Shown: in pieces, positions 36-55,704 of the stretch
Position numbering within the stretch: position 1 is the first letter of the stretch
Layout of the letters: the number at the start of each line of letters is the position of its first letter
DNA from: a virus
DNA: 64,000 nucleotides
Virus record (IMG/VR): IMGVR_UViG_3300045988_161245
Location: 148,685 to 212,684 of that record
Reading direction: 5' to 3' (one strand)
Program-made: the position numbers and the translations under genes
Notes under the pieces: model-generated
Seen by the model: only the letters and a program-made list of their open reading frames with translations
What the model was told of the DNA's origin: nothing
The model's database searches: none

Positions 36-854
36 ATGTCTGAGGACGAAAAAGCAATTGTAGATCTCTTTAATAATGCAAAATCTATTATTGTTATGGA
101 TCAGTATGGACTGGTAATCAAGTCCGTATCCAATTATTGTGGCGTTGAATCTTCTACTATAAAATATAACTTTTATCTGGATGAAGAGAACAACATGAAA
201 CCTGTAATTACCGTTCGTCTCAAGGCTGTTGATCTCAATGAAAAAATCAAATCTATTGAAGCTGCTATGGGTGAAGATACTGTTGACGAATCAAGTATGT
301 CTCTTGAAGAGTACAGAGCATACAAAATTAAACAGTATGGTGTAGAATGCCAGGACAAAATTTATGCAGGTACTGATGTAGAGACAAGTTATGGAACAGA
401 GCACTTTTCTGCCACAGGTGATGATCAGGCAAATATTAAAACTTTATCTGATGTTGCCATGGCAACAAAGGTATCTCTTCCATATCATGCAGATGGCTCA
501 CAGTGCAAAGTATATACCTATCAGGATATTATTAAAATTTACTGTGAGATTCAGAAACTCATTCTTGCAGAGACATCTTATTGTAATGCTTTGAATACAT
601 ATGTAAGAGGACTTAATACCAAAGAACAGATTGCAGCTGTTAAATATGGTCAGGAAATTACAGATCAGGCAATTAAGACTAATATGGATACCGTAATTGC
701 ACAGGGAAATGCTGTAATGGAAGGTATTGTAAAGCAGTATCTTGAAACTGCAGTACCAGAAACTAAGACAGATGTTAAGGACACAGAAAATACTACAGAT
801 GGTACAGATAATATAGAAGATGCAGCTACAGAAAAATCATCTAAAAAGGCGTGA
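36..854 (+). CDS. late-module protein, DUF4376-like region (tail-fibre associated?)
   Basis: 272-aa ORF directly upstream of a membrane protein and the endolysin. The segment EEYRAYKIKQYG..IYAG..TSYGTEHFSATGDDQANI resembles the DUF4376 region of phage tail-fibre proteins. Family call is from memory only. Confidence 0.4.
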   Translation: MSEDEKAIVDLFNNAKSIIVMDQYGLVIKSVSNYCGVESSTIKYNFYLDEENNMKPVITVRLKAVDLNEKIKSIEAAMGEDTVDESSMSLEEYRAYKIKQYGVECQDKIYAGTDVETSYGTEHFSATGDDQANIKTLSDVAMATKVSLPYHADGSQCKVYTYQDIIKIYCEIQKLILAETSYCNALNTYVRGLNTKEQIAAVKYGQEITDQAIKTNMDTVIAQGNAVMEGIVKQYLETAVPETKTDVKDTENTTDGTDNIEDAATEKSSKKA

Positions 855-1818: not shown

Positions 1819-2838
1819 ATGACAAAGACAGAAAAAGCTACTCAGTGGATGGAAGCAACAGCTCGAAACGATGCACATGGATATGATCAGACTTTTCGTT
1901 GGAACGAAAAAGGCGATTATGACTGCTCTTCTGCTGTTTACACTGCATGGGTCAATGCAGGTATTCCTGTAAAAGATTATTCATTTAAAACTTATGGCTG
2001 TGCTTATACTGGTGTTATGAAAGCAGTATTTACACATTTTAAATTTAAGGATGTAACCTCTAAAGTAAATCTTGCAACAGGAGCAGGTTTACAGCGTGGA
2101 GATATTTTACTTAATGAAAAACGTCATGTTGCAATGTATTGTGGTAATGGACTTGAAGTTGAAGCATCTATCAATGAAAATGGTAGAGCTACTGGAGGTA
2201 AACCTGGGGACCAGACTGGACGTGAATTCTTAATTCGCTCTTATAGAAATTATCCATGGAATGTTGTTCTCAGATATACTGAAGCAGCTGATGGTAATCC
2301 GCCTGTAACTACAAAAAATTATCTTGCTATGGGTGATAAAGGTGATGCAGTAAAAACAATGCAGACAATGCTTATTAAACTTGGTTATTCATGTGGAAAA
2401 TATGGTGCTGATGGAGATTTTGGATCAGGATCATTAGCATCTGTAAAAGCGTTTCAGCGTGATAATGGACTTGTTGCAGACGGTCTTTATGGTGAGGCTA
2501 CAAAAGCTAAACTTACAACCTTATATAATGCTAAAATTAAAGCAGAATCGGCTCCAAAACCAAGTTCAAAGCCATCTATTGCATCATCTTCTAAAGTTGC
2601 TTCTGCACAGTCCTTTAATAAATCAATTGCTGGTACTTACAAGGTTAAAGCATCTAATGGTCTTAATCTTCGTTATAAACCAGGAGATACATCCAATTCA
2701 AATCTTATCATTACAATCCCTAATGGAAAATCTGTTGCAAATTATGGATACTACACTACCGTCAATGGAGTCAAGTGGTATCTTGTTACATACAAAGATA
2801 CACCTGGATTTGTTTCCAGTAGGTATCTTGTTAAATGA
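1819..2838 (+). CDS. endolysin: NlpC/P60-type cell-wall hydrolase + PG_binding_1 + SH3-like domain
   Basis: RBS AAGGAG lies upstream. The N-terminus carries DYDCSSAVYTAW (catalytic Cys) and KRHVAMYCG (His). The middle has the PG_binding_1 signature GDKGDAVKTMQTMLIKLGY..DGDFGSGSLASVKAFQRDNGLVADGLYG. The C-terminus GLNLRYKPG..VKWYLVTY is SH3b-like. Confidence 0.85.
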   Translation: MTKTEKATQWMEATARNDAHGYDQTFRWNEKGDYDCSSAVYTAWVNAGIPVKDYSFKTYGCAYTGVMKAVFTHFKFKDVTSKVNLATGAGLQRGDILLNEKRHVAMYCGNGLEVEASINENGRATGGKPGDQTGREFLIRSYRNYPWNVVLRYTEAADGNPPVTTKNYLAMGDKGDAVKTMQTMLIKLGYSCGKYGADGDFGSGSLASVKAFQRDNGLVADGLYGEATKAKLTTLYNAKIKAESAPKPSSKPSIASSSKVASAQSFNKSIAGTYKVKASNGLNLRYKPGDTSNSNLIITIPNGKSVANYGYYTTVNGVKWYLVTYKDTPGFVSSRYLVK

Positions 2839-2885
2839 TAGTACAGCACACAATGAATAAAGGGAGTGAGGATAAGGTGATTTAA

Positions 2886-3464
2886 ATGGATAAGTTTGGT
2901 GGGATTAAAGAGAATGTAGAAGTTGTACGCAGTTTTGATTGGTGGACCGTTGTAATTGGAGTTTTGATTGCAATAGGTATTGTAATGCTATGCGTAAAAA
3001 TTAAAGACTTCGTTGTTTCTACATTTGGAATTACTACAAAATCTGCTTTAGCTAAACAGGCACAAGAGGAACGTATCAAAGACTTGAATAATCAAATTAT
3101 AGATTTACAGAAAGAAATTCAACAGTTTAAGGATAATAGAACCCATGATAGAGAGCAGTCATTTGATATACAGAAACAATTAACTGACAGTCAGACTTTG
3201 CTACAAAATTCTGTCGAGAATTTAAGAAAAATGTTAGTTAACAAAGAGATTAATGACATGCGTTGGGAAATTCTTGACTTTTCAAATGCCGTTATGAACG
3301 GTAGAGTATATAATAAAGAGATATATGATCATATTTTTGACACATACACAGAATATGAACGAGTATTGGAAGAAAACGGTCTTGAAAATGGTAAGGTTGA
3401 TTCTTCAATGCAATTTGTTCGTAATAAATATCTTGAGCTAATGGAAAAAGGCTTTAAGCAGTAA
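2886..3464 (+). CDS. membrane-anchored coiled-coil protein (lysis accessory?)
   Basis: 192-aa ORF with one N-terminal TM segment (WWTVVIGVLIAIGIVMLCV) followed by a heptad-rich region. It is the last plus-strand gene before the convergent terminator. Confidence 0.5.
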   Translation: MDKFGGIKENVEVVRSFDWWTVVIGVLIAIGIVMLCVKIKDFVVSTFGITTKSALAKQAQEERIKDLNNQIIDLQKEIQQFKDNRTHDREQSFDIQKQLTDSQTLLQNSVENLRKMLVNKEINDMRWEILDFSNAVMNGRVYNKEIYDHIFDTYTEYERVLEENGLENGKVDSSMQFVRNKYLELMEKGFKQ

Positions 3465-3842: not shown

Positions 3843-4414
3843 AATTTATTTACCATGATTTTTCTATACTTCTGCTGCTATGTATGGTATTATCATATTT
3901 GTAACTAACATTTCAATTTTAATAAGACTCCAGCACGATTTAAATTGGCCTGCGTGCTGGAGTCTTGTATATGTAAAATTTACTCATTCCGCAACTTGAA
4001 TAGTCCTTATAATAATCAGAACTTAAAAGTACAAATTCCATACTTTTCTCCTAATAAAGTAAAAACCTCTGATATTTGCAAAGAAGAAGATTTTTTCAAA
4101 CCTAATATTGCAAAAATGCGTGATTATCTATATAATAAATATAGAAATCCAAAAACTTCTTGACAAACAAGATAAAAAGTTATATACTACAATATATAAA
4201 AAATTAGAGAAAACTAAATAAAGTGCTTTTTGGATATAGGAGCAAATGAGCCAGCCTATATTTGGAAAGAACACTTTCAAAAAGGACACCTCGTAGGATG
4301 TCCTTTTTGTATTGTTTTTATATTAAACTATATAACAAAGCCCAGCGATCCACACGGACAACTGGGCTTTTATTGTTACTATTCCTCATCATATTCCAGA
4401 CTCATATTTTCCTC

Positions 4415-12554: not shown

Positions 12555-13091
12555 TTACTCCTTTTTGTTGTCAGTTGATCCGAAACCACCGTTACGTGTT
12601 GCTTCTACATGATCGTCTTCTGTAATTCCATATTCTAAGAAAATTCCCTGGGCGATAGCTGCATTGCTTGTTACTGAAAACTCTTTATCTCCACGATTTA
12701 CAAGTTTAATAAAAATGTGACCTTCGTTGTCAGAGTTAATAAAATCGCAGTCTATAATTCCTGTTCCATTTACTAGATTGCACTGATATTTAAATCCAAG
12801 TCCACTTCTTGGGTAAATCATAAGAACATAATCTGTATTCATACGACATTTAATACCTGTTGGAATTTTAATTACTTCTCCTGGCTTTAGTGTAAATGAA
12901 AATGGAGTTCTAATATCAAATCCTGCGCTAAACTTTGTAGCTCTTGTAGGTAACTCTAATCCATAATACATACTTTCAATTTCTTGTCTGAGTCTCTTAG
13001 ATGTATCATCACCTGCAAGTCCAAATGTATCTAAATAATCTTTTTCAAACTGCTTATAGCTTACTTTCTCAAATTTTGCTACCCTCTTCAT
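12555..13091 (-). CDS. dut: dUTPase (trimeric dUTPase/dCTP deaminase superfamily)
   Basis: Motifs AGFDIRTP, IPTGIK, YPRSGLGFKY, NGTGIIDCDF and C-terminal RNGGFGST. Confidence 0.85.
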   Translation of the reverse strand: MKRVAKFEKVSYKQFEKDYLDTFGLAGDDTSKRLRQEIESMYYGLELPTRATKFSAGFDIRTPFSFTLKPGEVIKIPTGIKCRMNTDYVLMIYPRSGLGFKYQCNLVNGTGIIDCDFINSDNEGHIFIKLVNRGDKEFSVTSNAAIAQGIFLEYGITEDDHVEATRNGGFGSTDNKKE

Positions 13092-35876: not shown

Positions 35877-35934
35877 TACACAGGATAGGATTCGAACCTA
35901 CATTCTAATGTCCTGCCATTTAGACGACCTGTGC
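35877..35934 (-). ncRNA. 58-nt mini-tRNA-like gene lacking the anticodon arm
   Basis: The minus strand reads GCACAGG-TC-GTCT-AAATGGCA-GGAC-ATTAGAAT-GTAGG-TTCGAAT-CCTAT-CCTGTGT-A. It has a 7-bp acceptor, a normal D arm (A14, GG) and a normal T arm, but only 8 nt where the 17-nt anticodon arm plus variable loop should be. Confidence 0.5.
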
Positions 35935-36058
35935 TACCGATTATATAAAATGAAAGAAATTTTAATTGAGACACTGTAATTTTTATTAATACCCTATAGG
36001 TGATTCGATATAATTAATGCTCCAAGAGCGCAATACATATAAATCACAGTACCTCAAA

Positions 36059-36141
36059 TACGGATGATGGGACTCGAACCCACAAGGTTGTTAACCGCTG
36101 GAACCTAAATCCAGTCTGTTTTCCTATTTCAGCACATCCGC
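36059..36141 (-). tRNA. tRNA-Leu (anticodon TAG), type II
   Basis: Hand-folded. Acceptor GCGGATG/CATCCGT, D arm CTG-AAATAGGAAAA-CAG, anticodon arm CTGGA-TTTAGGT-TCCAG, long variable arm CGGTTAACAACCTTG, and T arm with loop TTCGAGT. No encoded CCA. Confidence 0.85.
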
Positions 36142-36526
36142 TTATTTTGGCAAGAACCTGTATAACTTGCCAGTAACTCTTATACTCTCACTTATACAAA
36201 CAAGGTGACGTGAGCGAATTACTTTTTAGAAAAAGATCCTTGTTATATTCTTCTTCTCAGATTTTTATGTAGGCGACCATCGCAGAAACCTACTGCCTTA
36301 TCTCTGCTACTCAACAGATCTCGTATATCTCTTACGCTGAATCTGGCTTCCGCAGATTACGGACTATCGTAGAATCCACACAGGACTCATATGAGATATT
36401 TTTGGCGACGGTTTTTCGTGCTTTATTTAATTGTATTTTGTATTTTTACGCGCTTTGCTTAATAAATCTTTTGAGTTCACATTCACCGGTATCCTGATTT
36501 TTACTACAAAATTTTTATTAAGCAAG

Positions 36527-36600
36527 TGGACCATCTGTGATTCGAACACAGAAATCTTTCGCTTATGAGGCGACTGCCTTAACCGTTTGGCTAATGGTCC
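36527..36600 (-). tRNA. tRNA-Met/Ile2 (anticodon CAT)
   Basis: Acceptor GGACCAT/ATGGTCC, D arm GCCAAACGGTTAAGGC, anticodon loop CTCATAA, T arm CTGTG-TTCGAAT-CACAG. No encoded CCA. Confidence 0.85.
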
Positions 36601-36827
36601 TTAACTTGATAGAGCAAACCCTGAAATCTCTATCTCTCATTTATTTTAAGACTAATGAGTTTATCCCACATATCAAACGCTTAATGCGGCTACATCAAGC
36701 TGTGGCCGACCATTTGTACATCGAAATGCTAACCATAGCGCATTCGATCATAAGGATTGAAAGTCTGTGTTTTTCTACTCGGTTTATTAAGGTCGTATGA
36801 AAATACATCTAAAAACAGTGGACCTAG

Positions 36828-36900
36828 CTGGGCTGGCAGGATTCGAACCTGCGAAATGGTAGAGTCAAATTCTACTGCCTTTCCACTTGGCTACAACCCA
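36828..36900 (-). tRNA. tRNA-Gln (anticodon TTG)
   Basis: Acceptor TGGGTTG/CAGCCCA with U1:A72 (a Gln hallmark), D arm GCCAAGTGGAAAGGC, anticodon arm GTAGA-ATTTGAC-TCTAC, T arm GCAGG-TTCGAAT-CCTGC. Confidence 0.85.
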
Positions 36901-36967
36901 ATAATGAGATAGTATATCGTTCCATTCTTCTACTATCTCGTTCCGCAATGTAAAATGGAAACGGAAC

Positions 36968-37040
36968 ATGGAACTAAATGGAATCGAACCATTGTTTACC
37001 TGTTATACCAACAGGTGTGCTGCCACTTCATCACAACCCA
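36968..37040 (-). tRNA. tRNA-like pseudogene/chimera (GTA-type anticodon arm, unpaired acceptor)
   Basis: T arm AATGG-TTCGATT-CCATT and hairpin CCTGT-TGGTATA-ACAGG are present. The 5' end GGGTTGTGATGAAGTGG copies the start of the neighbouring tRNA-Gln and cannot pair with the 3' strand TAGTTCC. Confidence 0.35.
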
Positions 37041-37574
37041 AAAACAATTTCATATCTTCAGTATCTACTCATCTTACTTTACGCTTAGACTTTCTTCGAG
37101 AGATCTGCGTAGCCATCTTCACATCCACACCTCAGATGATATGTATCTACAATAGTTACTTCCAATATGAAATTATTTCTCTTTCAAATTCCTTCTATTA
37201 AGTCTATATGGTAACAACATAGTGTAATCTACATTAGAAGTTCATCAAAAGAATTTTATTATATCCATATACATAAAATATATAATGCTCCTTAATTACA
37301 ATTCCCACATTTAACGTATGTGTAGAGCTATAACGCCATTTGAATATCTGATAAGTATCAGCACTTTGGAGGGATATATCGTTTCACCACATCCACAGGT
37401 TAACCACGCCTTATTCAAAATGGATAGCATAAGAGTCCATCAGCCATAGGAGCAGACTCCACGGAGTTCCATAACGATGACTTTTGGATTTATTATGTCA
37501 ATGATTGTTTTGCACCGCCTATATTCGTAACTATGCTATTCAATTTATATTCTAATAGGAAGAAACTCTTCCAG

Positions 37575-37648
37575 AAGAACATATGGGATTTGCACCCATG
37601 ACGGTCACAACCTATGTGGTTGCCGCTCTCCTCCTGAGCTAATGTTCT
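37575..37648 (-). tRNA. tRNA-like gene, CAT anticodon in a non-canonical loop (A33) and T-loop TGCAAAT
   Basis: Perfect acceptor AGAACAT/ATGTTCT, D arm GCTC-AGGAGGA-GAGC, anticodon arm GCAAC-CACATAG-GTTGT, T arm ATGGG-TGCAAAT-CCCAT. Positions 33 and 55 deviate from universal tRNA residues. Confidence 0.45.
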
Positions 37649-37953
37649 TTCCAAAAACAAAGATTTAATAAATATTACAAACATTTTTGAGATCTCAATC
37701 TTCTTATAAGGCTTACGCCGATCCCACTCGACCCTGGAACTTCTGAAGATTTTTATGAACTCTGCTTCATTCATAAAAGTTTAGCCATTGAAGAATACCT
37801 CTAGCAGTTTCGGTTTCTTACGCATAGCTTCAAGATTTCAGAACTACTGCGCTCTGTAGGTGGTGGATCATACACGATATTGTGTAGTCAAACGGTACGG
37901 CAACTCGATGTTGAGAAGCGTTTTCTGTGACACCACATATCTGAAATCTCTAA

Positions 37954-38020
37954 CAGGACATCTGGGAGTCGAACCCAGTACAGACTGCTCAAAGTCTCTT
38001 CACCATCGAAGTCATGTCAC
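37954..38020 (-). tRNA. compact 67-nt tRNA-like gene with a 6-nt (or 8-nt) anticodon loop
   Basis: GTGACAT-GA-CTTC-GATGGT-GAAG-AGACT-TTGAGC-AGTCT-GTA-CTGGG-TTCGACT-CCCAG-ATGTCCT-G. One acceptor mismatch. The anticodon loop is not 7 nt. Confidence 0.4.
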
Positions 38021-38077
38021 ACCTCAACACTTTAGGAGGTATAAGAAATAAGAAATCTATTTGGGTAGCTAACCCAA

Positions 38078-38146
38078 ATCCTGGATGCGGATTCGAACCG
38101 GCAAATACATGAGTTTCATGTGTTATAACCATTTAACTATCCAGGA
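38078..38146 (-). tRNA. tRNA-like gene whose anticodon arm is replaced by a 6-bp/3-nt-loop hairpin
   Basis: Perfect acceptor TCCTGGA/TCCAGGA, TA, D arm GTTA-AATGGTTA-TAAC, then ACATGA-AAC-TCATGT. The T arm has loop TTCGAAT but a weak stem. It is followed by hairpin TTGGGTTAGCTACCCAA. Confidence 0.45.
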
Positions 38147-38676
38147 CGTTCCAACTGCGGCTTTGTTAGAACTAAGAAACAAGGTTTTAATAACCGCATT
38201 GATTTATTTATAAGATGAACTTCACCACTTATCAGCCTTGTACAAACCACAGAGCCGATATAATCATGCTACAAAACTTTTTCAAGGTTTTTATCAAACT
38301 TTGGAACTTATCAACTTTACTACGTGAACTTTATATCAAAAATAAGCTTTGAATTTTGAGCTTTAAGGTTTGAACTTTCTATCTTTAAACTTTACAGTCA
38401 TCCAAAATAAGTATTATATAATCTACCAATTATAGAATTTTGTAATGTTCAGATTATCATTCTGACCTTTTTTACATTAATTTTTGAGGCCAGCTTGTTT
38501 AATTTTTTACTTTACTCTATGCTGGCTGAAAGACTAAAGGATTATAGTTCAGTGGTTTTCGATAAGCAATGAAGGAAATCTTTTATACAACTATTCGTAT
38601 AACAATGGCTATTTAGCTATTATATGGATCAAAAATCGCTTGTATAATTTTTAACTAATAATTCACTGACCATTTA

Positions 38677-39327
38677 TTAATACTCAATTGTAACTGTTGT
38701 TAATGCATTACTTGTGCTTAAAACGGAGTCTACTTCAGCTTCAAATGAGGAAATTTCGTCAGATAAAACACGGATTTTATTTTGTACATTAATCGGATCA
38801 ACTAACGCCCATGTGTTAAGATCAACGTACTGCTGTTTAGCTTTTGTAACTTCATCGGTAGAAGTTTTACCCTCTTTCTGTCCAAAAAGACCAGTTACAT
38901 AATTTTCTGATTTACTTTCAAGAGTTTCATTCTCTTTATTTGTTTTTGCCTGTGCCTGAGAAAGCTGTTGCTGCATTCTGTCAAGCATCTGTCTCTTAAA
39001 CATCATACTGTTATTTTTCATGTTGATTGCTTCTGCTACAGTACGTTCTTCTTCGTTTTCTCCAATTTTAATCTTAACTTTTGTTACTGCATTTGAAAGC
39101 ATTACTGCTCTCTGCAGAGCTTCAAGTCTACTCATAAGATCTACATCTTTGTCGTAACATCCTGTAACAATCTTCTCATATTCATCAACATCCATTCCAG
39201 AAATTTTTGACTGAGAATTTTTCTTGCAAGATACAAAAATTGAATTGTAAATCTCACTCTGGATTCTGTCTTTAAGGATTTTGATTTCTGCTAATGCTTT
39301 ATGTACTGTCATAGTTTCTTTCGTCAT
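38677..39327 (-). CDS. coiled-coil hypothetical protein (distant paralogue of 40023-40544?)
   Basis: 216-aa ORF with RBS AAGGAG. The only gene inside the tRNA island. Confidence 0.55.
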   Translation of the reverse strand: MTKETMTVHKALAEIKILKDRIQSEIYNSIFVSCKKNSQSKISGMDVDEYEKIVTGCYDKDVDLMSRLEALQRAVMLSNAVTKVKIKIGENEEERTVAEAINMKNNSMMFKRQMLDRMQQQLSQAQAKTNKENETLESKSENYVTGLFGQKEGKTSTDEVTKAKQQYVDLNTWALVDPINVQNKIRVLSDEISSFEAEVDSVLSTSNALTTVTIEY

Positions 39328-39398
39328 AATGTTCTTCTCCTTTAAATTGAATTTTATTCTTTAAATTTTTAACTTTGAAATACTCATTTCTGAGTTAA

Positions 39399-39470
39399 CT
39401 GCACCTGTTGGAATCGAACCAACATCTGATGATCCAAGGTCATCCGTGATAACCATTACACTAAGATGCT
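39399..39470 (-). tRNA. tRNA-like gene, anticodon loop CCTTGGA (TTG with C33, or shifted TGG); A1/A72 mismatch
   Basis: AGCATCT-TA-GTGTAATGGTTATCAC-G-GATGA-CCTTGGA-TCATC-AGAT-GTTGG-TTCGATT-CCAAC-AGGTGCA-G. The cloverleaf is good but position 33 is C. Confidence 0.55.
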
Positions 39471-48995: not shown

Positions 48996-50355
48996 TACCT
49001 TCTTCTCTTTCTGTATATAATTTAGCATCAATATTGTTTAGAATATCTTCTTTGTCATTATCCAACTTGTCATTAATTACTTCTTCCAATGCATAGTTGA
49101 GCCATTTTCCAACATCTGGACCTTCTTTAACTCCAAGCTCCATAATATCCTTCCCATTGATAGCCAAATCCTTTATGGTAAAACACTTCTCTTCTTCCAG
49201 AACTTCATTTAATACTTCTTCTGCACGAAATGTTTCCCATAAACGCTCTTTAGCGTAATATGGATTGTGAGCCATAATATCGCAGAATCTTACATCTAAC
49301 AGTCTTCTAAGTTGTGCTTCACCAAGTTTATTCAGATATTTTTTAATCTTATTTTGTTTTGGTATAATTGTCATATCATGGCTTGCCACAAGTTCGACTA
49401 CGGATTCTCTGATTTCATTAGAAAATTTAAGTCTACGAAGTAGTGAGTCAGCAATTTCTGCACTTTTAACAGCATGTCCATAGAAGTGCTCAATCCCTCG
49501 ATCTGCTGTTTTTGATTCTGGTTTACCAATATCATGAAGTAAGATAGCAAGTCTGGTCTCTAATTCATGTATTCTACAAGCTGTTAATGCGAATCTGGTG
49601 TGATTCCATACATCGTAAATGTGATACATATTATTCTGGGAGCATCCCATTATCTTACTTAACTCAGGGATTGCCGGAGAAATATCAATATAATAATTAA
49701 GTACGTATTCAGGATGATCTGAAATAAGAATCTTACACAGCTCTGACTGTATTCTTTCTGCAGAAATTTTACTCAGACCATCGTTTGTTTGTACCATTGC
49801 AATATTGGTATAGTTTTCAATGTGGAATCCCAATTGAGCAGCAAACCTTACAGCTCTCATGATACGCAACGGATCTTCTGTGAATCTATCAATAGGTACA
49901 CCTACACATCGGATAATTTTATTCTCAATATCTTTTAGTCCATTGAACGGATCAATAAATCCATCATCGTCATTGTAGGCAATCGCATTCATTGTAAAAT
50001 CACGCCTTGCTAAATCTTCATGAATATTTCCAACAAACTTCACAGAATCTGGATGGCGGCTATCAGTATATTTTCCATCGGTTCTATAAGTAGTTATTTC
50101 ATACCCACAATAATTTACCATGACAGTTACAGTACCATGCTGCAAGCCTGTTTCTACTACACGAAATCCTTTGCTACGGAACAATTTACATACGTCTTCC
50201 GGCGAGGCGTTTGTGCAGATATCCCAGTCATGCACAGGTAATCCTATAATAGAATTACGTACAGCTCCACCTACAATATAGGCTTCGTAACCATTACGAT
50301 TAAGTACGTAAAATATAGATTTTACGGACTCTGGTAATACAATACCCTCTATCAT
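48976..50355 (-). CDS. cca: CCA-adding enzyme / tRNA nucleotidyltransferase with HD domain
   Basis: The start was set at MIEGIVLPES (RBS GGAGAG 8 nt upstream). GGAVRNSIIGLPVHDWDI (GGxVRD..DxD) is present, followed by RRDFTMNA, EDPLRIMRAVRFAAQLGF and the HD motif LLHDIGKP. Confidence 0.85.
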   Translation of the reverse strand: MIEGIVLPESVKSIFYVLNRNGYEAYIVGGAVRNSIIGLPVHDWDICTNASPEDVCKLFRSKGFRVVETGLQHGTVTVMVNYCGYEITTYRTDGKYTDSRHPDSVKFVGNIHEDLARRDFTMNAIAYNDDDGFIDPFNGLKDIENKIIRCVGVPIDRFTEDPLRIMRAVRFAAQLGFHIENYTNIAMVQTNDGLSKISAERIQSELCKILISDHPEYVLNYYIDISPAIPELSKIMGCSQNNMYHIYDVWNHTRFALTACRIHELETRLAILLHDIGKPESKTADRGIEHFYGHAVKSAEIADSLLRRLKFSNEIRESVVELVASHDMTIIPKQNKIKKYLNKLGEAQLRRLLDVRFCDIMAHNPYYAKERLWETFRAEEVLNEVLEEEKCFTIKDLAINGKDIMELGVKEGPDVGKWLNYALEEVINDKLDNDKEDILNNIDAKLYTEREEGNDEEMP

Positions 50356-50382
50356 TTTTACTCTCCTTTCTTTAAGATTTAA

Positions 50383-50517
50383 TGTGCAGATAGGGATTTG
50401 AACCCTATATAAGCAAATTTGATCAATTTTGTTTATTGACATAAATTCGCCATTATAATATGCCTAATTTTGTAAATAAAGCATTATTATACGCATATAT
50501 CCATTCTGCCACTGCAC
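50383..50517 (-). ncRNA. 135-nt tRNA-like element in the cca leader
   Basis: Acceptor GTGCAGT/TCTGCAC pairs at 6 of 7 positions. T arm TAGGG-TTCAAAT-CCCTA and a D-like GCA-GAATGGATATA-TGC are present. Between them are two long hairpins (ATAATAATGC..GCATATTAT and GCGAATTT..AAATTTGC) instead of a normal anticodon arm. The 3' end lies 28 nt before the cca ATG. Confidence 0.45.
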
Positions 50518-50548
50518 GACTTAATTTTTAAATGCATCTAAAATATTA

Positions 50549-50726
50549 ATAGTGGTGTGCTATTACGCCAAAAGGGGACTTATCCTTACCTGTTAAGGGG
50601 TGACGTATCATAACTCTTTACATCCTATTCTCTTACTCGTTTATCTTCGATTGAAGTTTTTCATACCTTTAGACTTAAAGCCCTACTCCTTAGATGATGG
50701 CTGCTTCTAAGCCAACATTCCACTAT
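50549..50726 (-). ncRNA. structured RNA mimicking 23S rRNA helices 42-44 (GTPase-associated centre) with a ~115-nt insertion
   Basis: The minus strand reads ATAGTGG-A-ATGTTGGCTTAGAAGCAGCCATCAT-CTAAGGAG...TTTTG-GCGTAATAGC-ACA-CCACTAT. The 25-mer equals E. coli 23S 1057-1081 and the 10-mer equals 1091-1100, as I recall the 58-nt L11-binding RNA. The closing 7-bp helix is complementary but unrelated in sequence to rRNA. Confidence 0.6.
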
Positions 50727-50735
50727 TTATTATTT

Positions 50736-51476
50736 CTATTTCTTTCTAGCTTTTAATTCAGCTAATTTTTTCTCAATTTCTTCATCTTTCATTTTCTGAT
50801 CAAGACGCTGCTTCTGCACTGATGCGGAATTTTCATAAGCAATTTTTGTACCATCAGCTGCCTCTTTCTGTTTTTTAACACCATCACGCACTTTCTCAAG
50901 CATTTTATCTTCTTCTAAGGACGACATACCTGGTGTCGCTTGCAAAGATTTTGTTACCTGCGCTGTTTCAAGTGTCAGAATTGCATTATCTTTTTCTGCT
51001 TTAAGATCAGACAACTGAGTCTTAATAGTATTTACTGTCTCTTCCTGGAGTTTTGCATTTTCTTTCAATCCAACAAGAGCATCTTTGATGATTGTAACTT
51101 TTTCTTCTAAATCCTGCTGTTCTTTAAGATAAACTTTTGCACCATCATCATCATTTTTCTCTACACAAGAGTTCACATTAATTTCGGCTTTCATAAGATC
51201 TTTTTTATAACCACGGAGCTGATCTTCGTAATTAGAAATCTTTCCAAGCATCTGAGAATAAATAGTATTTGCCTGAGTAAGATCATCTTCTTTTTTTTCA
51301 ATTGCTACGTTATAATAAGCTTTTGCGCCCTCTGGTGTTGAAGCATCTTTTGTAATAGCCTCTGCAGCTGTACCAGAAGCTCTAAGTCTTAATCTTTTCC
51401 CTGTTTTTGTCCTTGCAAATACAATAATTCCAATCAAAGCAAGAATAACAATCGCTGCTACAATTTCTAATCTCAT
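50736..51476 (-). CDS. membrane-anchored PspA/IM30-like coiled-coil protein
   Basis: 246 aa. An N-terminal TM segment (LEIVAAIVILALIGIIVFA) is followed by a long heptad region with the PspA-like pattern (AKAYYNVAIEKKEDDLTQA..LKEQQDLEEKV..). The family call is tentative. Confidence 0.45.
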   Translation of the reverse strand: MRLEIVAAIVILALIGIIVFARTKTGKRLRLRASGTAAEAITKDASTPEGAKAYYNVAIEKKEDDLTQANTIYSQMLGKISNYEDQLRGYKKDLMKAEINVNSCVEKNDDDGAKVYLKEQQDLEEKVTIIKDALVGLKENAKLQEETVNTIKTQLSDLKAEKDNAILTLETAQVTKSLQATPGMSSLEEDKMLEKVRDGVKKQKEAADGTKIAYENSASVQKQRLDQKMKDEEIEKKLAELKARKK

Positions 51477-52114
51477 TAGTCTCTACCCTCATCAATATCA
51501 AGCCCAAAGTTCTTAAACAGCTCCGTCATTCCACCAACATAACCAGAGCCAAGTGCCTGAAATTTGAATCCATCGCCATAACGATATAGTCTTCCCATTT
51601 CTACAGCATTTAGTTTTTCAAAATTTTCATTTTCAGAAAGGTCATACTCATATTTATCACCATCTGGATTATCATAGTCACAAATCGTCATTATAGCGTT
51701 AGACACCATTCCAAAGTTCTGAAGCCTCTGTACGGCTCTAAAAATAGTCAGACAAACAGTGAAGTCTGTCTTATCTTTAGGAAATGTATCTGCATGAACA
51801 ATAAAATATTCATCATAATGTTTACCATTAAATACAATTCCCTGTGTATCATCGCCAGTACGATTATCTCCAGAATACTCTACCCATGGATATTTACTTC
51901 CATCGCCATATGTATTGTAGTTAACAAGATCTCCTGGATATACAACTTTACGATCCTGATTTGTTAAAAGTCCATTAATATCAAAATCAATGTCTGCTTC
52001 TCCAGCATATCTATTCTGATCCCAGTTGGCTCCGATGAAAAAATTCTTTACTGCAGAACCATCCTCTTTTACCATACTAATTTTCTGATTTTTGCTCATG
52101 TTAATAACTGCCAT
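51476..52114 (-). CDS. terD: TerD-family protein
   Basis: GANWD..DIDFDINGLL, YSGDNRTGDDTQG (Ca-binding GDN.TG.GD motif) and GRLYRYGDGFKFQALGSGY are typical TerD blocks. Confidence 0.8.
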   Translation of the reverse strand: MAVINMSKNQKISMVKEDGSAVKNFFIGANWDQNRYAGEADIDFDINGLLTNQDRKVVYPGDLVNYNTYGDGSKYPWVEYSGDNRTGDDTQGIVFNGKHYDEYFIVHADTFPKDKTDFTVCLTIFRAVQRLQNFGMVSNAIMTICDYDNPDGDKYEYDLSENENFEKLNAVEMGRLYRYGDGFKFQALGSGYVGGMTELFKNFGLDIDEGRD

Positions 52115-52138
52115 AGTTATATTCTCCTATTTCTAAAA

Positions 52139-52903
52139 TTATTTATTATTCAGCCAGTCTTTGTACTGACGAAGAATCTCTGTATAAAGCTGTTCATCTG
52201 TCATCTTATCCATATCTTCTACAGAAGTGAAACCTGTATTGTCTGCCTCTCTTCCATCGAGTTTGTCAAGTTTTTTGAGGTAACTGAAATTGTCGTCACC
52301 AATTCCGATAAACTGCACGAAAATGTTATACTTAGAAAGCTCACGTACAATCTTGTCTGTTGCTACATGATCTGAGTTGTCACCATCTGTAATAAAAATT
52401 ACAAACGCAGGAATCTCACTTGGCTCAATGTCTTTATAATATGTAACAACTTCATCCAATACAGGTGCATATTCTGTTCCACCCATATACATACCAGACT
52501 TTTTCATAACCTTTTTAACATAATTTGAATAATTATTCTCTGTAACTGCTTTTAAACGTTTGCATCCATTTGAGAATAACCAGCTCTCAAGTTCGCCATT
52601 ATCATCAAATCTAAGAGCGATTGGAAGAAGTCTTGATACAGTTTTCTGTACAGAACCATTATCAAAAAGCCAATCCATACTTCCTGAGTAGTCCATAGCT
52701 AATGCGACTCTAGCGGTATGTTTAGTCATATCAATCTTGCTACCCTTGGACATATCAATTAGAACATTATTTAAATGTTCTTTAGACATATCAATTGTAA
52801 AAGTAGCTTGTGTTTCAGTTTTTTCTGTAGATTTAGCAGCGGTATCAACCGCCACCTCTTCTACATCATCTTTCTTACCAAACAATTTTCCAAAAAATCC
52901 CAT
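52139..52903 (-). CDS. vWA-domain protein (TerY/TerF-C-like)
   Basis: MIDAS motif ALAMDYSGSM, later GGTEYAPV and FITDGDN. Confidence 0.7.
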   Translation of the reverse strand: MGFFGKLFGKKDDVEEVAVDTAAKSTEKTETQATFTIDMSKEHLNNVLIDMSKGSKIDMTKHTARVALAMDYSGSMDWLFDNGSVQKTVSRLLPIALRFDDNGELESWLFSNGCKRLKAVTENNYSNYVKKVMKKSGMYMGGTEYAPVLDEVVTYYKDIEPSEIPAFVIFITDGDNSDHVATDKIVRELSKYNIFVQFIGIGDDNFSYLKKLDKLDGREADNTGFTSVEDMDKMTDEQLYTEILRQYKDWLNNK

Positions 52904-53076
52904 ATTTTTTTCTCCTTTTTATTTTTTTAATATTTTTAATGATATAGGGTATGTTAATAAAGTAAAAAATATAAATGGAACAAATTTTGTTATACATACA
53001 AGTATCAAACCAATTGAATAACAAACTAAAGTTATATTTTCAACAATTTTATATTCTTTATCCATATACCTTACTT

Positions 53077-55704
53077 CTACTTTCTTTTAATTTTTATAAC
53101 AGCTTTTCGTACTAAATCAATTGGGATAATCATAAATGCCAAAACAACTGTCACACCCCACTGTGTACCTGACATTGCTGTACATCTCATAACATCTCCA
53201 CCGAACTGTGCTAAAACAAATGTTAAAGCAAAAATTACAACTGCAATTTCGATGAAAAGTTTATTTTTGCCAATACCCTTAAACAGATTGAATCCGTCCG
53301 TTCTGATATTAAATCCGTTGAATGTTGCCATCATAATGAGTAGTGCAAATCTGACTGTAGCATAAACAGGCTCATTGTTTCCGAAAATTTTCTGTACCGA
53401 TGGTAACAAAGTAATACCAAAGATTCCAATAAATGCCACAACTGATACTGCAATCTGACCGATAGTTTCTTTTGAAAGAAGTTTTGATCCTTTTGGAATA
53501 GGCTTTTCTTTCATATATTCGTCTTTCGCAGGTTCTCCACCAAAGGAAAGGGAATTAAGAGAATCCATAACAATGTTAATTACAAGAATCTGCACTGCAG
53601 CAATTGCTTCCACAGACATAATAATTGGATATAAGATACTGAGAATTACTAGACCTATATTGATAGGTAACTGAAATTTTAAAAACTTCATAACATTGTG
53701 CATAAATGTTCTTCCCAAAAGAACTGCATCTGTGATAGATACAAAGTTATCATCTGTGATAATAATATCGCCAGCTTCCTTACATACGTCTGTTCCAGAT
53801 CCCATTGAGAATCCAACATCTGCTGCTTTCAATGCTGGAGCATCGTTAGTCCCATCTCCTGTCATACCAACACATAAACCAAGTTCTTGAGCTAAACGTA
53901 CAATTCTAAGTTTAGTGTTTGGTGTTGCTCTAGCAATAACTTTAATATAAGGAAGTTTTTCTTTTGCCTCTTCGTCTGATAATGCATCAAAGTCAATAGC
54001 TGACATTGCAATGTCAGATTCACTTGTGATCAATCCAGCATCTTTTGCGATAGCTTTCGCTGTGTCGATAACGTCACCAGTTACCATCATGACCTGAACT
54101 CCTGCATTGTGCATTTTTGCCACTGCTTCTGGTACTTCCGGACGAACATCATCACGAATTGCAACCAGCGAAGTAAGAATAAGATCATCTGGGAATCCCT
54201 CTTCTGGTAATGTGGATTTGCTGTAACCTGTTGCGATAACTCGCATTGCTTTTACAGCATATGCTTTAACGATAATTTTCAGCCTGTCTTTGTCGATTGG
54301 CTGGATTCCTTCTGCTGTTTCATAGGAAATTGCTGCGTCAATCAGTTTTTCCGGCGCACCTTTGTAATAGGTAATCTTTCCTTCTTTTCCATCTGTCTCA
54401 ACTGCACTGAACTTATTTGCACTGTTGAAACTCTTTCTATTTGACACATTCACTGAATCAGTGACCATGTTGTATTCTTCTCTACTAACCAACGTGAGCA
54501 ATGCTCTTTCTGTGGCATTTCCGCCTACAATGTCGTTGTTTTCGTCATACATTGCACTGCTGTTTAATGCCACATTCAGCTTAAACAGATTGTCTGTCAT
54601 ACTTCCTTCCGGTACTGGGTTTCCATCACCCATTACATTCTCTACCGGCACAAGTTTACCTACTGTAAGAGTTCCTGTCTTATCGGTACAAAGTAACTGA
54701 ATATTACCTGCTTCTGGAATCTTGTTAGTGTGTTTAGCTAGGACATTGTGTTTAATCATTACTTTTGCATTCTGCGCAGTAATTAGATTAATGATAAGCG
54801 GTAGTCCTTCTGGTACTGCTGCGACAATAATGGTAAGCGCAGTTACTGTAATGGTAAGAATATTCTTCAGAATACCAATCCAACCCATTCCAAAGTATTC
54901 AGCGATACCGCCGTACTGGATAATGTTTGTGATGATCAATGCTACAACAATGATTGAAGCTCCGATATATCCGAATTTACTAATCTGTCCAGCAAGATCC
55001 TCCAACTGGATTTCCAGGGAAGTCTTTGTTTCTTCGATTTCATCAATGGTCGAAATTGTCTGACCGTTTACTGTGTCAACACCAACGTTAGTTACAATCA
55101 TTTTTCCTTCGCCATCTGTTACCGTTGTTCCGGAAAACAGTGCATAAGAATTTGTATAATCACTTGAATCCGCTTTTCTCTGACCACCAAATGTGATAGG
55201 TGAATCTTCTTTATCCCATGCTGTTTTTTTGCAAGGCTCTGACTCTCCATTCAATACAGAGTTGTCAACTTTTATATTTCCTTCTACCAGATATCCATCT
55301 GCATGAATGGCTTCTCCGGACTGAATGATAACCAGATCACCGACAACCAAATCATTTGTATTGATATGCTCGATTTTTCCATTTCTGATTACATTACAAT
55401 AATGAACTGATGTCCTATCCTTCAACTCTTTTGCACTTTTCTGGCTTTTCAGTCCGGTGTTCATTCCTAACAATGCGATTGCCAATAATACTACTGCAAC
55501 ACCAATCGGTTCTGAATAAGATCCCTGTCCAAACACTGCAATAACTGTAAATACAATCATCATTGCTAAAAGAATCTGATTTATGTGACTTTCAAATGTT
55601 TCCATAAAGAATTGAAACCCTGTTTTCAGCTTTTTCTCTGGCAGTTTATTACTACCATACTTTTCTCTCTGTTTTTCTACTTCACTACTTTTTAAACCGT
55701 ACAA
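53077..55704 (-). CDS. P-type ATPase, P2 (Ca2+-transporting) type
   Basis: TGES-like LNGESEP, AVPEGLP, phosphorylation site CTDKTGTLT, MVTGD and hinge GMTGDGTNDAPALK, with about 10 TM segments. 875 aa. Confidence 0.9.
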   Translation of the reverse strand: MYGLKSSEVEKQREKYGSNKLPEKKLKTGFQFFMETFESHINQILLAMMIVFTVIAVFGQGSYSEPIGVAVVLLAIALLGMNTGLKSQKSAKELKDRTSVHYCNVIRNGKIEHINTNDLVVGDLVIIQSGEAIHADGYLVEGNIKVDNSVLNGESEPCKKTAWDKEDSPITFGGQRKADSSDYTNSYALFSGTTVTDGEGKMIVTNVGVDTVNGQTISTIDEIEETKTSLEIQLEDLAGQISKFGYIGASIIVVALIITNIIQYGGIAEYFGMGWIGILKNILTITVTALTIIVAAVPEGLPLIINLITAQNAKVMIKHNVLAKHTNKIPEAGNIQLLCTDKTGTLTVGKLVPVENVMGDGNPVPEGSMTDNLFKLNVALNSSAMYDENNDIVGGNATERALLTLVSREEYNMVTDSVNVSNRKSFNSANKFSAVETDGKEGKITYYKGAPEKLIDAAISYETAEGIQPIDKDRLKIIVKAYAVKAMRVIATGYSKSTLPEEGFPDDLILTSLVAIRDDVRPEVPEAVAKMHNAGVQVMMVTGDVIDTAKAIAKDAGLITSESDIAMSAIDFDALSDEEAKEKLPYIKVIARATPNTKLRIVRLAQELGLCVGMTGDGTNDAPALKAADVGFSMGSGTDVCKEAGDIIITDDNFVSITDAVLLGRTFMHNVMKFLKFQLPINIGLVILSILYPIIMSVEAIAAVQILVINIVMDSLNSLSFGGEPAKDEYMKEKPIPKGSKLLSKETIGQIAVSVVAFIGIFGITLLPSVQKIFGNNEPVYATVRFALLIMMATFNGFNIRTDGFNLFKGIGKNKLFIEIAVVIFALTFVLAQFGGDVMRCTAMSGTQWGVTVVLAFMIIPIDLVRKAVIKIKRK

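Follow-up and report, generated by a model that had tools for sequence, protein, structure and literature searches.

A phage RNA element resembling the L11-binding domain of 23S rRNA, from a family found among phage tRNA genes

Why should a phage carry, in the gap between two protein genes, a copy of part of the large ribosomal RNA? The question is raised by an element of 180 nucleotides (nt) in a 64,000-nt stretch of viral DNA (IMG/VR record IMGVR_UViG_3300045988_161245, positions 148,685 to 212,684), the whole of which is called the window here. The element is non-coding, lies on the minus strand at window positions 50548-50727 and resembles the GTPase-associated centre of 23S rRNA (helices 42-44, nt 1051-1108), into which a further domain is inserted. 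It is one member of a non-coding RNA family, widespread in phages, in which the 58-nt L11-binding domain is preserved in sequence, in secondary structure and in the pairs of the tertiary fold; members always sit on the strand of the tRNA genes and often abut them.

The rRNA-like element in the window

The sequence as first written in the initial annotation agrees with the minus strand read directly. The runs ATGTTGGCTTAGAAGCAGCCATCAT and GCGTAATAGC are identical to Escherichia coli 23S rRNA, and the identity claimed for a 25-mer (nt 1057-1081) and a 10-mer (nt 1091-1100) was reproduced on direct alignment. Leaving out the insertion, nt 1056-1103 agree with E. coli at 42 of 48 positions, and four of the six differences are paired changes, at 1082/1086 (U-A to C-G) and at 1090/1101 (A-U to U-A). 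A BLAST search of 5426 E. coli genomes aligned only nt 3-40 of the element, to annotated 23S rRNA in every genome. Positions 50676-50718 also align to positions 1098-1144 of the Rfam bacterial large-subunit (LSU) rRNA covariance model with 19.9 bits (E 1.8e-4), a score far below the gathering score because the match is only a fragment. The exact 16-mer occurs once in the window, and shuffled sequences with three mismatches allowed give 0.22 matches. As the initial annotation had stated, there is no rRNA similarity outside the two halves, neither BLAST nor the LSU model finding any; the flanks are phage genes and tRNAs. A separate observation concerns the rrn operon of E. coli SCU-301 (L123, 3594-3610), where the 23S rRNA reads CAGCGGGAUG instead of the expected CAGCCAGGAUG at nt 1051-1056; this variant would explain the 89.5% identity in the E. 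coli BLAST.

Read from 50727 to 50548, the element is laid out as AAUAGUGG-AAUGUU-GGCUUAGAAGCAGCCA-UCAUCUAAGGAGU-(112-nt domain)-UUUG-GCGUAAUAGCACA-CCACUAUU, with no open reading frame (ORF) of 40 or more amino acids overlapping it. The hairpin of helix 43 is present, its loop UUAGAAGCA closed by a GGC/GCC stem, as is the helix 44 hairpin GCGUAAUAGC with A1095, the 1092-1099 pair of which is a compensatory U-A in relative L076. Judged from sequence, the elements of the tertiary fold of the centre also appear to be kept, namely U1060 with A1088, the 1082-1086 pair, and G1071 and C1072 for the triples. An unrelated but complementary closing helix stands in the place of helix 42, as the initial annotation had stated, although its length is 8 base pairs (bp) rather than 7 (AATAGTGG/CCACTATT, 50727-50720 with 50555-50548). 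The insertion that had been put at about 115 nt is likewise present (116 nt with the conserved UUUG linker), not at the junction of helices 43 and 44 but inside helix 44, between nt 1090 and 1091. One of the two hairpins described within it, CTTTA-AGTC-TAAAG, is supported by a relative with U-A changed to U-G; the other, CCTTA-ACAGG-TAAGG, does not correspond to the conserved pairing, the relatives instead supporting CCN-(4-nt loop)-N'GG followed by an unpaired UAAGG.

Phage relatives and their covariation

The IMG/VR viral contigs were scanned with the helix 43 16-mer as seed, which yielded at least 118 stretches, and with a seed from the 3' half, which yielded at least 119, about half of them on new contigs. 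After inspection, about 100 of the 118 first-seed matches listed were found to share the same architecture. Among these 118, 73 elements (66 unique) combine a complementary closing helix with a strict register, in which 6 nt separate the 5' strand of the helix from the 16-mer, and 3 nt (ACA) separate AGC from the 3' strand; this register is common to 54 of the 56 scored matches as well. Most of the other first-seed matches listed are members with a helix mismatch or a variant helix 44 loop, and the list includes about 10 chance or coding matches and one genuine 23S rRNA (L122).

Members range from 105 to 414 nt (median 198) at loci with a GC content of 0.29-0.69. Their closing helices, of 5-14 bp, differ in sequence at constant register, and their insertions, linker included, measure 45-350 nt. 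Only L072 and L014, out of roughly 100 members, lack the insertion and represent minimal mimics, and about 10% carry a second insertion, a hairpin, between nt 1077 and 1078. No universally conserved motif was found in the insertions of relatives. A 3' module, CAC-CCN(4-nt loop)N'GG-UAAGG, is shared by about a quarter of the members, the window included, and both its flanking 2 bp and its N/N' pair covary. A family covariance model, R1, scores the window, itself among the model-building sequences, at 77.9 bits over 50551-50724, and aligns the 23S centres of E. coli and Paenibacillus over their full length, with gaps only at the insertion stem and the linker. Three features have no rRNA counterpart: A1101 (95%; rRNA has U), the UUUG linker and the insertion at 1090/1091. 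They point to common descent, not to repeated capture from hosts.

Amongst 185,579 species genomes, the 3' signature was found in only 44 stretches, mostly on contigs of metagenome-assembled genomes from many phyla. A distant BLAST search of GenBank phages with 50380-50780 gave no match, and cultured phages were recovered only by a 41-nt core query. Those carrying the element include the Pseudomonas phages pf16, UNO-G1W1 and Astolliot, Aeromonas phage 4_4572, Cronobacter phage GAP32, Pectobacterium phage CBB, Serratia phage BF, Erwinia, Yersinia and Xanthomonas jumbo phages and a Vibrio phage, in all of which the site is unannotated in the inspected records, together with Pseudomonas phage Milchi, in which a hypothetical-protein annotation covers it.

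Several unusual cases were noted. Two diverged tandem copies, with a tRNA-Pro between them, occur at L058 (5138 and 5456, plus strand). The insertion-less mimics of L072 (about 4355-4413, minus strand) and L014 (3713-3772, plus strand) lie on viral contigs with non-rRNA flanks; L072 keeps the rRNA-type GCUCA and may be an independent capture. At L066 (about 106-197, plus strand) there is a helix 43 loop alone, GGGGAUUC-GGCUUAGAAGCAGCCA-CCCC, with no helix 44 half and a weak model score of 17.4 bits. A second rRNA mimic within the insertion, such as the sarcin-ricin loop, was considered and rejected: when 66 insertions were compared with E. coli rRNAs by BLAST, the matches were scattered, 10-15 nt long and attributable to chance.

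Covariation was assessed in a core alignment of 51 sequences (A1), in which each insertion was replaced by its first 6 nt, GAAA and its last 11 nt. Of the structure cells, 97.2% are paired, and both sides are changed in 262 cells against 74 ± 7.5 in shuffles, a signal that collapses with slid partners. Elements had been selected for the closing helix and the 16-mer had served as seed, so this evidence is circular for those two parts. Independent of selection are the covariation of 1057-1081, 1058-1080 (GC 20, UA 20, AU 7, CG 3) and the tertiary pair 1082-1086 (UA 27, CG 15, AU 3), and that of all four pairs of the insertion base stem. Unsupervised mutual information, computed in sets seeded from the opposite half, ranked 1058-1080, 1082-1086, 1057-1081, 1064-1074 and 1062-1076 at the top, all of them known pairs of the rRNA domain; no covariation between the helix 43 and helix 44 loops was detected. 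The search for homologues that the initial annotation had proposed produced a large family in which the rRNA-type pairs and the closing helix covary.

The fold is kept more strictly than the exposed loop tips, as positional conservation is 92-98% in the core (U1060 93%, G1071 92%, C1072 96%, C1075 98%) against 73-88% at the helix 43 tip (A1067 81%, G1068 73%, A1069 88%, A1070 83%). In the helix 44 loop, G1093 (99%), U1094 (97%), A1095 (95%) and A1098 (96%) are well conserved, A1096 less so (81%), and nt 1097 is free. A1088 is invariant in the alignment of 51 sequences and was fixed by the search pattern in the set used for positional conservation. In rRNA, the loop tips of the GTPase-associated centre are invariant.

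Genomic setting and possible function

The only family-wide constant neighbour of the element is a tRNA gene. Within 2 kb of the elements, 303 tRNAs lie on the same strand and none on the opposite one, and a tRNA is found within 1 kb in 74 of 124 matches. Of 86 unique elements, 20 follow closely on a tRNA, which ends 0-28 nt upstream of the closing helix (within 9 nt in 19 of them), and 26 precede one that starts at most 21 nt downstream. When ORFs within 4 kb were clustered, no protein family occurred in more than 7 of 95 loci, and the only recurrent neighbours related to translation were CCA-adding enzymes (four loci) and kinase/phosphatase-like proteins (five loci). Phage transfer-messenger RNA (tmRNA) genes adjoin the element in three loci, at L091 8163-8535 (minus strand), L094 13276-13663 (plus) and L044 4144-4232 (minus). 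L094 also has a type-P5 twister ribozyme match just over the gathering score at 12687-12763 (plus), and L118 has a 97-amino-acid ORF (2774-3067, plus), 2.2 kb upstream of the element, with a weak motif like the L7/L12 C-terminal domain (IRLLTGLGLRESKD).

In the window, the element starts 8 nt past the stop codon of a weak PspA/IM30-like ORF (50736-51476), and about 190 nt downstream of it is a CCA-adding-enzyme ORF (cca; PolyA_pol head and HD domains) with its true start at 50355. Canonical tRNAs come no closer than 11 kb, the nearest being on the same strand. Between the element and cca, 30 nt downstream of the former and overlapping a spurious N-terminal extension of the latter, begins a tRNA-like element (Table 1) that default ARAGORN did not call and the Rfam tRNA model did not match; with introns allowed, ARAGORN reported a dubious tRNA-Asp with a 45-nt intron. 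This tRNA-like element probably supplies an RNase P site. In L049, a related 216-kb phage contig, homology to the window stops exactly at 50727, and the element, the spacer and the tRNA-like element together are 99% conserved in L049/L155, against 88-94% for the flanks. Neither a terminator nor a sequestered ribosome-binding site was found adjoining the element.

Other features were noted further away in the window, all on the minus strand. A RAGATH-27 RNA (38488-38573, 87.5 bits, over the gathering score) lies inside a tRNA region at 35877-39470, in which the Rfam tRNAs at 38078-38146 and 35877-35934 were missed by ARAGORN and an ARAGORN tRNA-Met (37574-37648) is absent from the Rfam list. 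A stress-module-like run (50736-55704) comprises the weak PspA/IM30-like ORF, TerD, a vWA-TerF-like protein and an 875-amino-acid P-type cation ATPase.

Table 1. Parts of the rRNA-like element and the adjoining tRNA-like element, in window coordinates; nt numbers are those of 23S rRNA.
Feature	Position	Strand	Basis
Whole element, apparent free-standing mimic of nt 1051-1108 with inserted domain	50548..50727	-	sequence, family covariance model
Closing helix, 5' strand AAUAGUGG, in place of helix 42 nt 1051-1055	50720..50727	-	sequence
AAUGUU, nt 1056-1061: outer helix 43 stem, 5' strand (1057-1059), and U1060	50714..50719	-	covariation of 1057-1081 and 1058-1080; U1060 93%
GGCUUAGAAGCAGCCA, nt 1062-1077: helix 43 inner stem and loop with A1067	50698..50713	-	BLAST, LSU model, alignment; compensatory changes of relatives at 1064-1074 and 1062-1076
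UCAUCUAAGGAGU, nt 1078-1090: helix 43 3' strand, 1082-1086 pair (C-G here), G1087, A1088, G1089, U1090	50685..50697	-	alignment, covariation
Inserted domain, 112 nt, between nt 1090 and 1091	50573..50684	-	base stem AGGG (50684-50681) pairs with CCCU (50576-50573)
Hairpin CUUUA-AGUC-UAAAG within the insertion	50667..50680	-	U-A to U-G in relative L155
3' module GU-CAC-CCU(UAAC)AGG-UAAGG-AU: small hairpin and asymmetric internal loop	50582..50604	-	present in 20 members
UUUG single-stranded linker from insertion to G1091	50569..50572	-	each position at least 90% conserved
GCGUAAUAGCACA, nt 1091-1103: helix 44 inner hairpin with A1095, then A1101, C1102, A1103	50556..50568	-	alignment; A1101 family-specific
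Closing helix, 3' strand CCACUAUU	50548..50555	-	sequence
tRNA-like element	50383..50517	-	7-bp acceptor stem, canonical T arm UAGGG-UUCAAAU-CCCUA, aberrant over-long middle

Taken together, we tentatively favour a trans-acting mimic of the L11-binding domain, processed with tRNAs and binding the host protein L11 (uL11) off the ribosome. The RNA would share a transcript with tRNAs (in the window, with the tRNA-like element and cca) and be freed by tRNA-processing enzymes, which would make the closing helix its mature ends, and the stable product would accumulate. Folding like the rRNA domain, it would be bound by the C-terminal domain of uL11, which would be sequestered or borrowed off the ribosome, and the variable helix 44 insertion would form a peripheral domain that leaves the core fold intact. 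Isolated 1051-1108 RNA binds L11 tightly, including the L11 of other species, and RelA activation needs L11. According to structures attributed to Conn and to Wimberly in 1999, L11 reportedly binds the minor groove of helix 43 opposite the intercalated A1088, and mutants from the Draper laboratory are said to make the conservation of core over tips fit a ligand that reads the fold, such as L11, and not a reader of A1067 or A1095. As uL11 recognises the 1051-1108 fold and the core of that fold is the most conserved part, uL11 appears the most likely ligand; binding of the L10 stalk base, which the initial annotation had also raised, is weakened by the lack of a conserved helix 42 beyond 1051-1055/1104-1108. 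Titration of L11 would be the most economical reading of the element. The effects would likely fall on uL11-dependent functions (RelA activation and stringent control), or the RNA would be stabilised as a ribonucleoprotein; depletion of uL11 with blunting of RelA, and uL11 as a ribonucleoprotein stabiliser, are both speculative.

Several observations weigh against this L11-binding reading. A plain L11 sponge needs no insertion, yet only two of roughly 100 members are without one, and the second insertion at 1077/1078, seen in about 10%, is on a strand that may line the L11 site. Titrating a protein present in one copy per ribosome would take a very large amount of the RNA. Near the element, neither L11, L10 nor any other constant protein partner is encoded; tBLASTn found no homologues of L11, L10 or L12 in the window; and, taken alone, the sequence of the element in the window does not surpass shuffled sequences in minimum free energy (z -0.48).

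The element may instead serve as a decoy for an attacker of the GTPase centre, be it an ADP-ribosyltransferase toxin, another ribotoxin or a thiopeptide, and protect ribosomes in infection. A part in countering attacks on the translation machinery is ascribed to phage tRNA arrays, and the recurrence nearby of CCA-adding and kinase/phosphatase-like repair genes would suit such a role, as would the 95-99% conservation of G1093, U1094, A1095 and A1098. That the centre is a target of bacterial toxins follows from Tre23, which ADP-ribosylates helix 44 around nt 1095-1098 and blocks EF-G (PMC8661411). Tre23 is, however, a type VI effector, and a decoy would compete with tens of thousands of ribosomes. 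No anti-phage system targeting the centre was found in the literature searched, and we know of none. Positions in or near known binding and modification sites are also relaxed (A1067 81%, G1068 73%, A1096 81%, nt 1097 free); the proposal in the initial annotation of a decoy for a toxin, methyltransferase or antibiotic aimed at the centre is weakened in the same way for readers of A1067 or A1095 (thiopeptides, toxins, GTPases), the loop tips varying more (A1067 81%, G1068 73%) than the core (U1060 93%, C1072 96%). A decoy of this kind is unlikely, if still worth entertaining. Somewhat less probable is that the rRNA-like part is a nuclease-resistant scaffold, perhaps stabilised by L11, and that the function lies in the insertion or in protecting or processing tRNA precursors. 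The insertion is nearly always present, its recurrent modules have their own covariation, the element fills a tRNA-like slot in the arrays, and T4 rnaC and rnaD are other stable RNAs of phage tRNA clusters; but it is the insertion that varies (45-350 nt, without a universal motif) and the rRNA-like core that is constant, a scaffold has no need for loops so close to the rRNA sequence, and members without an insertion exist.

An off-ribosome platform for translational GTPases or the tRNA elbow seems improbable. In its favour, EF-G and the elbow of the tRNA touch this centre on the ribosome, the loops with A1067 and A1095 are largely retained, and the element is found among tRNA and tmRNA genes. 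Factor binding, however, also depends on the sarcin-ricin loop and L7/L12, neither of which is present, and the loop tips are the least conserved part of the core. The initial annotation had further suggested that the element acts in cis, as a leader through which a ribosomal protein regulates the tRNA-like element and cca. Regulation by rRNA-mimicking leaders has precedents, and the element is upstream of cca in the window, with cca nearby in four loci. This proposal finds no support in the family, most members of which lie between tRNAs with no constant downstream gene (the tRNA being the only constant neighbour, and no protein family exceeding 7 of 95 loci), nor in the surroundings of the element, where neither an adjoining terminator nor a sequestered ribosome-binding site was seen, and it has very little to recommend it. 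A non-functional fragment of captured ribosomal DNA, or an assembly chimera, is the most remote of these explanations and is at odds with the comparative data. Genuine 23S rRNA does occur in phage records (e.g. L122, Paenibacillus phage Pd_22F), but the flanks of the element lack rRNA similarity, many dozens of phage contigs unrelated to one another show the same family features and covariation, and the element is better conserved than the neighbouring genes. The initial annotation's view of a selected mimic, as opposed to captured ribosomal DNA, is borne out by a phage family with non-rRNA features, closing helices that are complementary and differ between members, and covarying rRNA-type pairs.

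Phages of many bacterial phyla may, though we put this forward with less than even confidence, carry a decoy of an rRNA domain, a stable RNA made like a tRNA, that captures uL11 or another ligand of the centre such as an immune toxin and rewires translation control or stringent signalling of the infected host; this would be a new class of viral RNA mimicry. If so, viral RNA mimicry would reach the catalytic-factor centre of the ribosome, beyond tRNAs, antitoxin RNAs and CRISPR repeats, and phages would be expected to act on uL11, on stringent control or on toxins directed at the centre. The family also provides a natural mutational and insertional scan of a well-studied RNA tertiary fold, with tolerated insertions at 1090/1091 and 1077/1078, and draws attention to a gene that annotation has missed in cultured phages of the jumbo and T4-like kinds (pf16, GAP32, CBB, BF, XacN1 and others). 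The hypothesis can be tested with existing phage-host pairs.

Comparison with known systems

To our knowledge, no phage RNA imitating a functional centre of rRNA has been described. The initial annotation likewise knew of no described phage mimic of this centre, and the absence holds for Rfam and for the searchable full-text literature, subscription-only papers being outside that search. Rfam 15 has no family at the site or in the long insertions of relatives; the only hit with E<0.01 is the sub-threshold LSU fragment, others having E values of 0.7-10. Identity of the element as a tRNA or tmRNA was considered and rejected, as neither ARAGORN nor Rfam found a cloverleaf.

The leaders of ribosomal-protein operons (the L10 leader, RF00557; the L1 site of the rplKA leader) are likewise non-ribosomal RNAs that imitate a protein site of rRNA. 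They are, however, cis-acting 5' untranslated regions of cells with partial mimicry, whereas the element is a near-exact copy of a whole domain, is carried by phages and has no match to an Rfam leader; downstream of it are the tRNA-like element and cca, not a ribosomal-protein gene. The T4 rnaC and rnaD RNAs and the GOLLD and ROOL RNAs also adjoin tRNAs on the same strand. T4 rnaC and rnaD are processed with the tRNAs, and we infer the same for the element family. There is no likeness in sequence or structure between rnaC or rnaD and the element, and the GOLLD and ROOL models gave no match. T4 rnaC and rnaD were also considered as diverged members and rejected, for want of any resemblance and of a match to model R1 in the T4 region.

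Phage RNA decoys, such as the pseudo-ToxI of phage phiTE and phage tRNAs that substitute for cleaved tRNAs of the host, imitate host RNAs as the element does, although it is antitoxin RNA or tRNAs that they imitate and not a functional centre of rRNA. Pseudo-ToxI RNA is described as imitating a host RNA to divert a host factor (PMC3475682). Work on insertion tolerance in 23S rRNA places the tolerated insertion of this region in helix 42 (1041-1049; PMC2441807), and it does not therefore bear on the 1090/1091 site.

The closest counterpart is the 23S GTPase-associated centre itself (helices 42-44, nt 1051-1108). With it the element shares near-identical helix 43 and 44 loops, the same three-way junction and a set of tertiary elements, namely U1060, A1088, 1082-1086, and the pairs 1091-1100 and 1092-1099 together with G1071 and C1072. 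It differs in being free-standing, in the place of its family in phage tRNA arrays and in its unrelated closing helix, as well as in the insertion of 45-350 nt with its UUUG linker, A1101 in place of U, and looser loop tips.

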